Source: Candidatus Omnitrophota bacterium (GTDB lineage Bacteria > Omnitrophota > Gorgyraeia > Aquiviventales > Aquiviventaceae). Taken from it: a stretch of 53,891 nucleotides of DNA. The notes beneath the pieces are model-generated. The model had not been told where the DNA came from, did not search any database, and saw only the letters and a list, made by a program, of their open reading frames with translations. The stretch lies in contig JACPTX010000018.1 of assembly GCA_016192545.1 (NCBI GenBank), forward strand, positions 1-53,891, in the 5' to 3' direction. Below are positions 50,758-53,455 of the stretch, in pieces (positions within the stretch are counted from its first letter, which is position 1; each line of letters opens with the position of its first letter). A program made the position numbers and the translations under genes.

Positions 50758-53455
50758 GTTGTCCTCCCGCTACACCCCCAAGGACGTCGAGGAGCGGCTC
50801 TATCAGCAGTGGGAGTCGCAGGCCCTCTTCCACGCCGAGCCTGACCGCCGCGCGCCCTACACCATCGTCATCCCGCCGCCCAACGTGACGGGCATCCTCC
50901 ACATGGGGCATGCGCTCAACAACACCATCCAGGACATCTGCATCCGGTTCAGGCGCATGCAGGGCGCGAACGCCCTCTGGGTGCCCGGCACGGACCACGC
51001 CGGCATCGCCACGCAGAACGTCGTCGAGAAGCAGCTTGCCAAAGAGGGCCTGCGGCGCCAGGACCTCGGGCGGGAGCAGTTCCTTCAGCGCGTGTGGCAG
51101 TGGAAGGAGCAATACGGCAACACCATCATCCGCCAGCTCAAGCGCCTGGGCTCTTCCTGCGACTGGCAGCGGACCCGCTTCACCATGGACGAGGGGCTGT
51201 CCGAGGCGGTCGCCGAGGTGTTCATCCGGCTCTACGAGAAAGGGCTGATCTACCGCGGCAACTACATCATCAACTGGTGCCCGCGCTGCCAGACCGCGCT
51301 CTCCGACGAGGAAGCCCCGCGCAAGGAGACCCGCGGCAAATTGTACTACCTCAAATATCCCCTCGTTCAAGGTTCAGGGTTCAAGGTTCAAGGGGGCCCT
51401 CGAACCTCGAACCTCGAACCTCGAACACACGTTGTGGTGGCGACTACCCGTCCCGAGACGATGCTTGGAGACACGGCCGTCGCGGTCCACCCCAAGGACA
51501 AGCGCTACAAATCGCTCATCGGCAAGACCGCGATCCTGCCCCTCGTCGGCCGTGAGCTCAAGATCATCGCGGATGAGGCGGTGGACCCGGAGTTCGGCAC
51601 CGGCGCGGTGAAGGTGACGCCGGCGCACGACCCGGTGGACTTCCAGCTTGGCAAGACGCACAAGCTTGAGTTCATCAACGTCATGACCGACGACGGGCGC
51701 ATGACGAATGTCCCCAAGGAGTACGAGGGGCTGGACCGTTTCGAATGCCGCAAGCGGCTGCTCGCGACCCTCGAGGGGCAGGGCATGCTCGAGAAAACCG
51801 CCGACCACCTCCACGCGGTCGGGCACTGCTACCGCTGCGACACGGTCATCGAGCCGCGCCTCAGCTTGCAGTGGTTCGTGAAGATGAAGCCCCTCGCTCA
51901 GCCCGCCATCGAGGCCGTCAAGAAGAAGCGCATCACCTTCACGCCTGCGCGCTGGACCAAGGTATACCTCAACTGGATGGAGCACATCCAGGACTGGTGC
52001 ATCAGCCGCCAAATCTGGTGGGGCCACCGCATTCCCGTCTACTACTGTCAACGGTGCCCGGCGGACCGCGTCATCGTCTCAAAGACTCCACCCGGCAAGT
52101 GTCCGAAATGCGGCTCGACGAACCTCAAGCAGGACGAGGACGTGCTCGACACGTGGTTTTCCTCCTGGCTGTGGCCGTTCTCGACGCTGGGCTGGCCCAA
52201 GAAGTCAAAAGATTTAGACTATTTCTACCCGACGGACACGCTCGTCACCGCGCCGGAAATCATCTTCTTCTGGGTGGCGCGGATGATCATGGCCGGGCTG
52301 TTCTGCATGGAGGACGTTCCGTTCCGGCAGGTCTACATCCACGGCACCGTGCGCGACCTCACCGGCAAGAAGATGTCCAAGTCGCTCGGCAACATCATTG
52401 ACCCGCTGGACATCATCGGCCAGTTCGGGGCGGACGCCCTGCGCTACACCCTCGTCACCTCGACCGCGGTCGGCACCGACGTGTTCATCTCGGAGGAGAA
52501 GTTCGTCGTCGGGCGCAACTTCGCCAACAAGCTCTGGAACGTCACCCGGTATGTCCTGTCGACAGTTCAAGGTTCAAGGTTCAAGGTTCAAGGGCACCCT
52601 TCACCCTTCAACCTCGAACCTCGAACCCTGTCTGTGGCGGACCGGTGGATTCTCTCGCGCCTCAGCCATGCGATCGCCGAGGTCACGAAGGCGCTCGACC
52701 GCTACGCCTTCAACGAGGCGGCGCAGACGGCCTATGAGCTCATCTGGCGCGACTTCTGCGACTGGTACGTTGAGGTGTCAAAAGTGAGAAGTCAAAAGTC
52801 AGAAGTGCAGCTTGCAGTGCTCGCCCACGTGCTGGAAACTGCGCTGCGCCTTTTGCATCCGGTCATGCCGTTCGTGACCGAGGAGCTGTGGCAGCACGTC
52901 AAGCCCGCCGGCTCGCCCGCCAGCATCATGACGGCACCCTGGCCCAAGGCCGAGAAGCGGTGGCTCGATGCCGAGGCGGAGGAGCAGTTCGCGCTCTTCA
53001 AGGCGGTGGTCACCGCCATCCGCAACACCAAGGCGGAGCTCAACGTCCCCCTCGAGACCAAGCCGCCGGTCCAGCTCTCCACCAAGCGCGAGGCGGTGCG
53101 GAGGTTCTTCGAGGACCAGCGCCCGTTCCTGCAGGTGCTCGCGCAAGTCGGGGACGTCACCGTCGGGGAAGGGCTCATGAAGCCCCGCGACGCCTCCGCG
53201 ACCGTGGTGGATGGCATCGAGGTCATCGTGCCGCTCTCCGGCCTGATTGACGCGGCAAAGGAGCGCCGGCGCATCCAGGCCCGCGTGCAGGAGCTCACCG
53301 AAGAATTAGGCCGCCTGGATGTCCGCCTCAAGGACCGCCAGTTCACTCAGCGCGCCCCCGAGGACGTCGTCAACCAGGCCAAGCAGCGCCGCGAGCAAGT
53401 CACCGAAACGCTCCAAAAATTCACCGGGCATCTCCAACTACTCGAATCACTCTAG
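50750..53455 (+). CDS. valS: Valine--tRNA ligase (carrying two in-frame palindromic element insertions)
   Basis: [15 protein letters not shown] (HIGH), [18 protein letters not shown] (KMSKS), C-terminal coiled coil. Confidence 0.97.
51365..51426 (+). repeat. GGTTCAAGG/CCTCGAACC palindromic element, in-frame insertion 1 in valS
   Basis: Read as [21 protein letters not shown] between YPL and [10 protein letters not shown], a loop that varies among ValRS proteins. Confidence 0.88.
52565..52627 (+). repeat. GGTTCAAGG/CCTCGAACC palindromic element, in-frame insertion 2 in valS
   Basis: Read as [21 protein letters not shown] between RYVLST and LSVADRWIL. Confidence 0.88.

Follow-up and report, generated by a model that had tools for sequence, protein, structure and literature searches.

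We analysed a 53,891-nucleotide contig from Candidatus Omnitrophota bacterium (GenBank assembly GCA_016192545.1, contig JACPTX010000018.1; 67% G+C), referred to at its full length as the window, in which the valine-tRNA ligase (ValRS) gene valS carries two in-frame copies, and the uL15 gene rplO a third, of a palindromic element of ~62 nt built from four tandem 7-nt repeats per arm. The evidence throughout is assembled sequence, and the window is a single metagenomic contig; on this footing the three copies are one family, here F1, within a widespread and fast-turning-over class of heptamer-array hairpins. The reading we favour, with some reserve, is that these elements are selfish or structural hairpin DNA, made by slippage and template switching, copied between sites, and filtered by what permissive protein loops allow.

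An earlier note on this DNA had described the two valS elements, their translations and a further copy in rplO. All three are present and the valS translations match the open reading frame (ORF), with the rplO copy now placed at 9754-9820. An alignment of 29 Omnitrophota ValRS sequences (872-996 aa) contains about five variable-length insertion hot spots, of which the window copies occupy hot spots 1 and 3. The host gene, whose orthologues carry the name valine--tRNA ligase, Candidatus Omnitrophota in a protein search, and the three copies are as follows.

50750-53455, + strand: valS, valine-tRNA ligase of 901 aa, host of two elements (ORF; E = 1.7e-233 against T. thermophilus ValRS 1GAX).
51365-51426, + strand: F1 copy 1, valS hot spot 1, encoding residues 206-226.
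52565-52627, + strand: F1 copy 2, valS hot spot 3, encoding residues 606-626.
9754-9820, + strand: F1 copy 3, 3′ end of rplO (9285-9824), encoding the C-terminal tail of uL15 and abutting the secY start at 9821.

The general plan of F1 is (GGTTCAA)4-loop-(CCTCGAA)4. In copy 1, a left arm of (GTTCAAG)x4.1 (51365-51393) is separated by the loop GGGC from a right arm of (CCTCGAA)x4.1 (51398-51426). Copy 2 also has a left arm of (GTTCAAG)x4.1 (52565-52593), followed by a right arm (52595-52627) of the mixed heptamers CCTTCAC, CCTTCAA and CCTCGAA, so that it reads (GTTCAAG)x4 G and then CACCCTT CACCCTT CAACCTC GAACCTC GAACC. Copy 3 joins (AAGGTTC)x4 through a loop to a right arm of alternating CCTCGAG and CCTCGAA and supplies the last ~22 rplO residues (…QEGSRFKGQGSGPEPRASNLEPRT*), with the rplO stop overlapping the secY start. 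As had been noticed, all three copies share orientation and frame: they lie on the + strand in the same phase, each ending …EPRT. Tandem Repeats Finder reports period-7 arrays of ~4 copies in every F1 arm, and the arm motifs GGTTCAAGGTTCA and CCTCGAACCTCGAA each have 14 matches at up to two mismatches, against 0.6 expected. Across the window, eight period-7 arrays pair into exactly four hairpins (8/8 paired as inverted arms, 7/8 translated); shuffled sequences hold 1.25 arrays on average.

Orthologue alignment and AlphaFold mapping, both of which the earlier note had proposed, show that the two valS sites are variable and free of the element in several orthologues. Both copies are gaps in the alignment with 1GAX, copy 1 falling after residue ~209, and both lie in variable-length columns of the Omnitrophota alignment; several orthologues have short loops without any element at hot spots 1 and 3 (e.g., L124, YPIEGQPGKFLEVATT). 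In an AlphaFold2 model of the window ValRS (mean predicted local distance difference test score, pLDDT, of 73), residues 206-226 form a loop between strands E191-205 and E227-232, with pLDDT < 50 at 209-223. The CP1 editing domain has this loop at its N-terminal edge, and the 1wka fragment aligns from residue 226. Residues 606-626 are placed where the anticodon-binding domain begins, flanked by helices H582-607 and H629-650, and pLDDT is low at 610-613. In uL15, homology and fold stop near residue 148; a 91%-identical uL15 of 151 aa lacks the tail, and orthologues of 150-152 aa are all tail-free. Dozens of other Omnitrophota uL15 proteins have different tails, visibly translated heptamer hairpins (e.g., AQGSRLKAQGS…PPASSLQPPA and SSELRVRSS…TRNSQLSTQN). 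Sequence comparison thus confirms that the three copies, which Thermus ValRS/uL15 or close relatives lack, are insertions rather than ancestral sequence, and bears out the suggestion that they are tolerated in loops of variable length.

Essential genes across the phylum retain inserts at the same structural positions, which could reflect selection at the protein level, on ValRS interaction loops or a functional uL15 tail, with the DNA palindromy incidental. We regard this as very improbable. Peptides at the same site are unrelated between lineages, even between proteins that are at least 90% identical, close relatives are insert-free, and disorder is predicted for the inserts. It is the 7-nt periodicity that is conserved, together with the potential to form a DNA hairpin, and the same DNA element is intergenic in many phyla. 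Because both valS inserts are low-pLDDT loops and same-site peptides are unrelated between lineages, the inserted peptides are probably passengers that form disordered loops and tails and are not required for any function.

A detector that pairs each tandem array with an inverted one built from its reverse-complement unit places the F1 copies in a larger class. In 1.19 Mb of Omnitrophota DNA (the window and 82 valS loci) it found 26 inverted array pairs at period 7, compared with 1, 2, 1, 0, 0 and 0 at periods 5, 6, 8, 9, 10 and 11, and shuffled DNA contained none. Sixteen of the 26 are inside valS, which makes up 19% of the DNA searched (p = 1.9e-6). The valS elements occur at hot spots 1-3 in genomes of 39% to 67% G+C, and their heptamers are varied (GGGTCAA, AGTCCAY, AGGGCTC, AGTGGTC, AATGWCG, GCTCCAA, GACCAGA and others). 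Over all loci, expanded inserts at sites 1, 2 and 3 have lag-7 autocorrelations of 0.45, 0.36 and 0.42, against ~0.26 at neighbouring lags, and they form a continuum from strongly folding hairpins to decayed remnants that are periodic only.

The GGTTCAA family itself reaches far beyond this phylum. Scanning a single genome of each species gave at least 117 loci, and the matches listed include hosts among the Acidobacteriota, Chloroflexota, Geobacteraceae, Rhodothermales, Planctomycetota, Verrucomicrobiota, Methylobacter, Cyanobacteria, Bacteroidota and Omnitrophota; among these matches, copies in many phyla are mainly perfect palindromes and intergenic. A single Pyrinomonadaceae metagenome-assembled genome (MAG; Acidobacteriota) has at least 20 such loci. 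Moreover, the loci listed from other phyla (0.86 Mb) contain 65 non-seed pairs at period 7, against 2, 6, 10 and 0 at periods 5, 6, 8 and 9, and these 65 hairpins make up ~35 other heptamer families. The earlier description of one ~62-nt family was accurate for the three copies and too narrow for the phenomenon, of which they are one family among many. The sites, too, proved to be hot spots used again and again, with hairpins that are unrelated from one lineage to another. In 11 Pyrinomonadaceae loci (L009, L017, L019, L025, L037, L056, L063, L097, L101, L103 and L105), different heptamer arms surround a common central core, (G/T)AAAGACA…TGTCTT; such constancy of the loop under changing stems may point to a motif that is recognised.

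This breadth also bears on the quality of the underlying sequence. The window ValRS is found on one contig only, repeats can mislead assemblers, and many members of the ValRS cluster are incomplete proteins cut off by the end of a contig; the repeats may be places in or near which assemblies tend to break, and coding copies could be under-counted. We nevertheless give almost no credence to an assembly or sequencing artefact of this metagenome-assembled contig, since frame is kept and stops are lacking in all copies, dozens of independent assemblies have analogous elements at these same sites, and the GGTTCAA family is also present in cultured isolates and a complete chromosome (L054, L073, L121 and L018).

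Translation has left a legible imprint on the arms. As 7 is not divisible by 3, a run of three tandem repeats is read in all frames, so that heptamers with TGA, TAA or TAG need editing. The perfect partner of GGTTCAA, TTGAACC, yields TGA in every frame and on both strands once three tandem copies are present, and perfect right arms would give two in-frame TGA codons per window copy. Lineages differ in how the stop is removed, with CGA in the window and TCA in L001, and the editing can be resolved to single heptamers: only the heptamer that would carry the in-frame stop is altered in L106 (Verrucomicrobiota LeuRS), L086 (Pyrinomonadaceae PurL) and L129 valS. In other phyla, where coding status was judged by ORFs with a Pfam check for three hosts, GGTTCAA/TTGAACC palindromes are rarely spanned by long ORFs among the matches listed and CCTCGAA variants often are. 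Bona fide coding copies from Omnitrophota have 83 stem mismatches, of which re-pairing would create a sense stop at 41 (19 in frame), against 13 of 83 in the antisense control (p = 5e-6). Furthermore, non-Watson-Crick pairs account for 13.2% of coding stems and 4.5% of non-coding stems (p = 2.5e-17). A perfect 27-bp palindrome is translated in frame in L202. As a separate observation, the LeuRS gene of L106 has an in-frame TAG at 2969-2971, at a tyrosine conserved in orthologues (…AER*WMG…) and 11 codons upstream of the in-frame GGTTCAA-family element; sequencing error, pseudogene formation or recoding could each explain it.

The earlier note had pointed out that the arm mismatches are asymmetric between strands and had concluded that an antisense RNA or the bottom DNA strand forms the better hairpin. 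The asymmetry is real. By RNA folding, each F1 copy folds far better than its shuffled versions, and the antisense RNAs of the three copies reach -47.4/-47.2/-40.6 kcal/mol against -36.1/-33.3/-34.0 kcal/mol for the sense strand, an advantage of 7-14 kcal/mol that recurs in most intact coding copies of relatives. Transition-type mismatches in coding copies comprise 42 sense A.C positions, which are G.U in the antisense strand, and 9 sense G.U positions (p = 3e-6), and about half of the mismatches are not needed for stop avoidance. A function via the antisense strand, with the wobbles marking the active strand as in integron attC sites and IS200/IS605 ends, would explain these features; we consider it quite unlikely, and the rest of the data lend it no support. 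Non-coding copies are strand-symmetric (56 G.T vs 56 A.C), in some lineages, such as L001 and L148 with their C.C/G.G mismatches, transversions disrupt the hairpin on both strands, and the changes follow the reading frame heptamer by heptamer. The 27-bp in-frame palindrome of L202 is tolerated without mismatch. A promoter scan around the elements found no sigma70-like promoter on either strand, and an Rfam search of the whole window at the gathering threshold returned two tRNAs only.

A palindrome is the same in either orientation and its 3′ arm on the sense strand must lose stops, so that the shared orientation of the copies carries no extra information. We propose that the A.C bias, the apparent fixed orientation and the better antisense fold arise because stops are edited and the sense hairpin is weakened; orientation and the better antisense hairpin are probably by-products. 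About half of the strand asymmetry is stop avoidance, and stop avoidance is ruled out as the only cause of the mismatches. The remainder would reflect selection or relaxation that weakens the hairpin on the exposed strand, that is, the mRNA, the non-template strand and, in co-oriented genes, the lagging-strand template, and extra selection on strand-specific stability is possible.

Comparison of the two arms suggests that they are kept mirrored. In non-coding copies, 32 of 115 positions off the consensus heptamer have, at the paired position of the other arm, a Watson-Crick change that compensates, when fewer than two such double-deviant pairs would be expected by chance; the corresponding figure in coding copies is 0/24, from which it follows that coding copies only decay. 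Mirrored heptamer gradients (L080) and nested elements (L069) are also present. Together, compensation, gradients and nesting indicate arm-to-arm copying or strong selection on pairing.

The families are specific to genomes rather than to sites. GGTTCAA occurs at three window sites in two genes and in the same phase, GGGTCAA at two sites of L001, and AGTCCAY at valS site 1 in L148, L151 and L174 and at site 2 in L123 and L156. In the closest valS relative of the window (81% identity), the elements at sites 1 and 3 are unrelated to those of the window, and site 5 holds an additional one. Simple orthologous descent of the site-1 element is ruled out, given the same family at different sites and close relatives with unrelated elements. 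ValRS proteins at least 90% identical differ at the hot spots, P0084/P0173 and P0098/P0175 being the only informative pairs among the length variants within 90% clusters; the length difference of P0063/P0134 comes from a start-codon call, not an element, and that of P0018/P0137 is an apparent assembly or deletion artefact in the editing domain.

Turnover is also visible in L202 and L203, syntenic loci with ~92% identical DNA that differ mainly by small hairpin indels. In L202, an identical 36-nt in-frame insert, CCCAGCACCAGTCGCTTCGCTCCGGTGCGAGGCAGG, stands at the same position of the (GGGACAA)4 arrays of valS and nadC (5221-5258 and 7981-8018), and is absent at L203 8500-8520 and 11330-11350. 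Its loop core, GTCGCTTCGCTCC, recurs upstream of valS in a hairpin whose stem is different (L203 7825-7875; L202 3-53). The site-3 hairpin has been fully replaced between the two genomes with identical boundaries, and intergenic palindromes have been swapped. Copying between sites and rapid turnover are thus visible as outcomes in the sequence, and the mechanism behind them could be transposition, gene conversion or template switching. The same two genomes contain a further palindromic family of these Omnitrophota, a perfect hairpin of 46 nt, AAAAGTAGACAAAACAGTCACTGWCTGTTTTGTCTACTTT, which each of them has at two intergenic sites (L202 10192-10237 and 14136-14181; L203 13473-13518 and 17658-17703).

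Ordinary non-autonomous transposable elements would account for part of this pattern. Repetitive extragenic palindromes (REPs) and REPINs are mobilised by REP-associated tyrosine transposases (RAYTs) and have a GTAG/CGTC tag (PMC3733652, PMC3116915), and in-frame landing within genes is known for REPs and for Rickettsia palindromic elements (RPEs; PMC3733652). If the heptamer hairpins were REP/REPIN-like or MITE-like units (MITEs are miniature transposable elements with inverted repeats) mobilised in trans, with the heptamers a feature of the transposase binding site, then multi-copy families such as that of the Pyrinomonadaceae MAG and the repeated 36-nt insert of L202 would be expected. We think this explanation unlikely, though it deserves to be taken seriously. 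The GTAG/CGTC tag is absent from the flanks and ends of the three F1 copies, and we found neither MITE-type terminal inverted repeats distinct from the arms nor a fixed-length target-site duplication. Nor is any target-site duplication or common flank motif consistent around the elements, the lone candidate being a 9-nt repeat at L001 site 3. In the loci inspected (L001, L003, L202 and L203) there is no transposase next to the elements, and no Y1_Tnp Pfam match among the genes listed. The GGTTCAA-family pattern has no match in 2.9 million viral contigs, on which basis phage was also rejected as the vector. Dozens of unrelated heptamers share one architecture, and copies of the same family have common arms and very different loops, the opposite of whole-unit copy-paste; processes acting on arrays, with repair of breaks at the centre, fit better than copy-paste of a fixed unit. 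A further candidate, in which the arrays originate as 7-bp target-duplication footprints, was rejected because such footprints would yield direct rather than inverted arms.

Our preferred reading, that the elements are slippage- and template-switch-derived hairpin DNA filtered by protein tolerance, can be set out in four steps. Replication slippage would first create heptamer arrays and alter their length, period 7 being favoured in many bacteria. An array would then be copied in inverted form and the arms kept mirrored by intrastrand template switching, or fold-back copying, a route suggested by the mirrored pattern observed. Units would next be copied between sites within a genome, as the outcomes above imply, with existing arrays and hairpins serving as landing pads, so that the same protein loops would be struck or overwritten repeatedly. 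Finally, the statistics above show selection in coding DNA, where survivors need a permissive surface loop or terminus, a length that is a multiple of 3 and no in-frame stop; editing and weakening of the sense hairpin would leave one mismatch per heptamer, make the orientation look fixed and give the antisense strand the better fold.

Several points weigh against this account. We found neither an enzyme nor a transposition intermediate, target-site duplications are not consistent, and the copying is deduced from its outcomes. Gene conversion between arrays, for example between valS and nadC of L202, could mimic copying, and the presence of the same heptamer across phyla could reflect horizontal spread of a true mobile family rather than recurrent genesis. 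The half of coding mismatches that lie outside stop avoidance also count here, as does AGTCCAC, whose partner GTGGACT is stop-free and yet is found as GTCGACT or ATGGACT. In the window copies all four 3′-arm heptamers have CGA, though only two would be in frame; this requires array homogenisation or a stop-free master copy, either of which we assume. The ORF-based coding calls in other phyla contain some spurious high-GC ORFs.

A stronger version, which we put forward tentatively, is that heptamer hairpins are a distinct, cross-phylum kind of self-propagating DNA with copying machinery of their own, using arrays and hairpins as landing pads in an ongoing rewriting of essential-protein loops and termini. 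If so, the loops and termini of ValRS, uL15 and NadC, and elsewhere of LeuRS and PurL, would be rewritten in this way, a continuing source of new protein segments, and the periodic sense mismatches would be an adaptation by which mRNA and DNA tolerate a ~28-bp stem.

Among known systems, the closest analogue is the RPEs, which are alike in mode, although the window elements, which differ in architecture and host phylum, are probably not members of that family. RPEs are ~100-150 bp long, have a family consensus and no internal tandem heptamers, and are not known outside Rickettsia. Both systems place palindromic DNA in frame within functional host genes, add extra peptides, are multi-copy per genome and are genic as well as intergenic; as with RPEs, the repeats here are in frame in conserved genes at surface-compatible sites. 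Compared with RPEs as described, the elements reported here are shorter (~60 nt), have arms that are 7-nt arrays, belong to many heptamer families, reuse the same loops phylum-wide and are spread over many phyla. In the account of Ogata et al. (2000) given in PMC3733652, RPEs are palindromic repeats in frame in still-functional genes.

With REP/REPIN elements the hairpins share short length, multiple copies, mostly intergenic and occasionally intragenic positions, and rapid evolution within genomes; in contrast, they have heptamer arms, no tag at the hairpin foot, loops that vary among copies with the same arms, and no RAYT seen nearby. They also do not resemble intrinsic terminators: a scan of 51000-53000 gave three terminator-like sites, none at the elements, and no T-run follows the stems (ACACGTTG, CTGTCTGT). 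The 36-nt insert within (GGGACAA)4 arrays of L202 recalls the small dispersed repeats (SDR) of Nostoc (PMC5861425), which were reportedly described by Elhai et al. in 2008 as mobile sequences of tens of nucleotides landing in specific short repeated targets. To our knowledge, SDR have been reported only from Nostocaceae.

The repeat unit itself connects the hairpins to heptanucleotide simple sequence repeats (SSRs), with which they share arrays of 2-6 units, a scattered distribution, the lack of a known vector, occasional inverted pairs and coding potential limited by stops. Heptanucleotide SSRs are the most abundant long SSR class, for which a polymerase-slippage rationale has been given; their distribution is scattered and unexplained, they are described mainly as intergenic direct repeats, and the logic of stop codons in all three frames was stated earlier for TAACTGA repeats (PMC4679880, PMC4692102). 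Examples include the cyanobacterial short tandemly repeated repetitive (STRR) sequences, Beggiatoaceae TAACTGA, Xanthomonas GGGAATC, Nostoc GGGGAYT, and G. metallireducens GGACCGG and MTYCTGA (PMC4679880, PMC4692102, PMC2700814); for the G. metallireducens families, copies inside genes as well as between them were noted in passing (PMC2700814). Here, too, 7-nt tandem arrays are over-represented relative to other periods. The organisation is different: instead of mainly intergenic direct repeats we find mirrored-array hairpins, translated in essential genes and with the stop-containing arm edited. Long inverted repeats within translated coding sequence are also known from mitochondrial genes of Nematomorpha, where perfect palindromes reach 284 bp (PMC6649704); those are mitochondrial, both arms encode conserved protein, there is no heptamer period, and they are not insertions in variable loops. 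The findings extend what is known of heptanucleotide repeats, and the elements lack the defining features of GTAG/CGTC REPs and MITEs and are probably not RPEs.

After RPEs, this is a second, independent and far more widespread case of selfish or structural DNA written into essential proteins, and its signature of selection is unusually legible, in that a 7-nt repeat read in three frames has its stop-containing arm edited. The hairpins account for the length heterogeneity of ValRS in Omnitrophota (872-996 aa) and for variable uL15 tails, and they call for caution among annotators and phylogeneticists, as hairpin-encoded segments are non-homologous between lineages. They also connect the excess of heptanucleotide repeats in bacteria with hairpin formation, arm-to-arm copying and rapid turnover, and genome pairs at ~92% identity that differ mainly at hairpins are natural experiments for the mechanism. 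The interest of the system rests mainly on the phylum-wide reuse of loops, the clean signature of selection and the copying between sites.

The window has two further period-7 features.

39347-39473, + strand: F2, an element with an intergenic (GAGTGAT)x3 arm and an inverted (ACTCTTC)x5 arm 72 nt downstream.
52777-52806, + strand: period-7 array within valS (hot spot 4), tandem only, with units GTCAAAA/GTGAGAA/GTCAGAA.

The (GAGTGAT)x3 arm of F2 directly follows the stop of the upstream gene, and the (ACTCTTC)x5 arm is translated as the hydrophobic core of what looks like a lipoprotein signal peptide (…LLLLVTLHSSLFTVLGC; MSGACWRRVGTLLLLVTLHSSLFTVLGC). The arms flank a likely ribosome-binding site and a start codon at 39398, and their pairing could occlude translation initiation; the ORF downstream of this start has no Pfam match. 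The same heptamer family, recognisable by SLITHH peptides, is found at valS hot spots of the relatives P0002, P0003 and P0018. The array at 52777-52806 reads GTCAAAA GTGAGAA GTCAAAA GTCAGAA; no inverted partner was found for it and its length is not expanded. It is possibly the remnant of a decayed element, and hot spot 4 holds inserts in the orthologues P0005 and P0006.

Other repeats in the window were noted in passing. An (AGTG)n or GAGTGAG-like array at 1294-1324 (GTGAGTGAGGGAGTGAGTGAGTCAGTGAGTAAG) spans a gene junction and supplies the TGA stop of the upstream gene; it resembles the stop-rich arm of the GAGTGAT family, and no inverted partner was seen. A separate REP-like family with the palindrome GGGGTCWGACCCC, often AAAAGGGGTCAGACCCCTT, lies at 153-206, 18178-18280 and 47817-47854 as intergenic inverted or tandem doublets. 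A possible link of GGTTCAA/GGTTCGA to the tRNA T-arm is recorded as a lead only. In the window's closest relative, L003, the UvrB gene (5812-9507) contains an intein with a LAGLIDADG domain (Pfam Intein_splicing and LAGLIDADG_3), and UvrB of L001 and L202 is intein-free. Finally, a hairpin with a 21-bp stem (CAAAAAGTGACAGTCACTTTT…) is located at 43969-44016.

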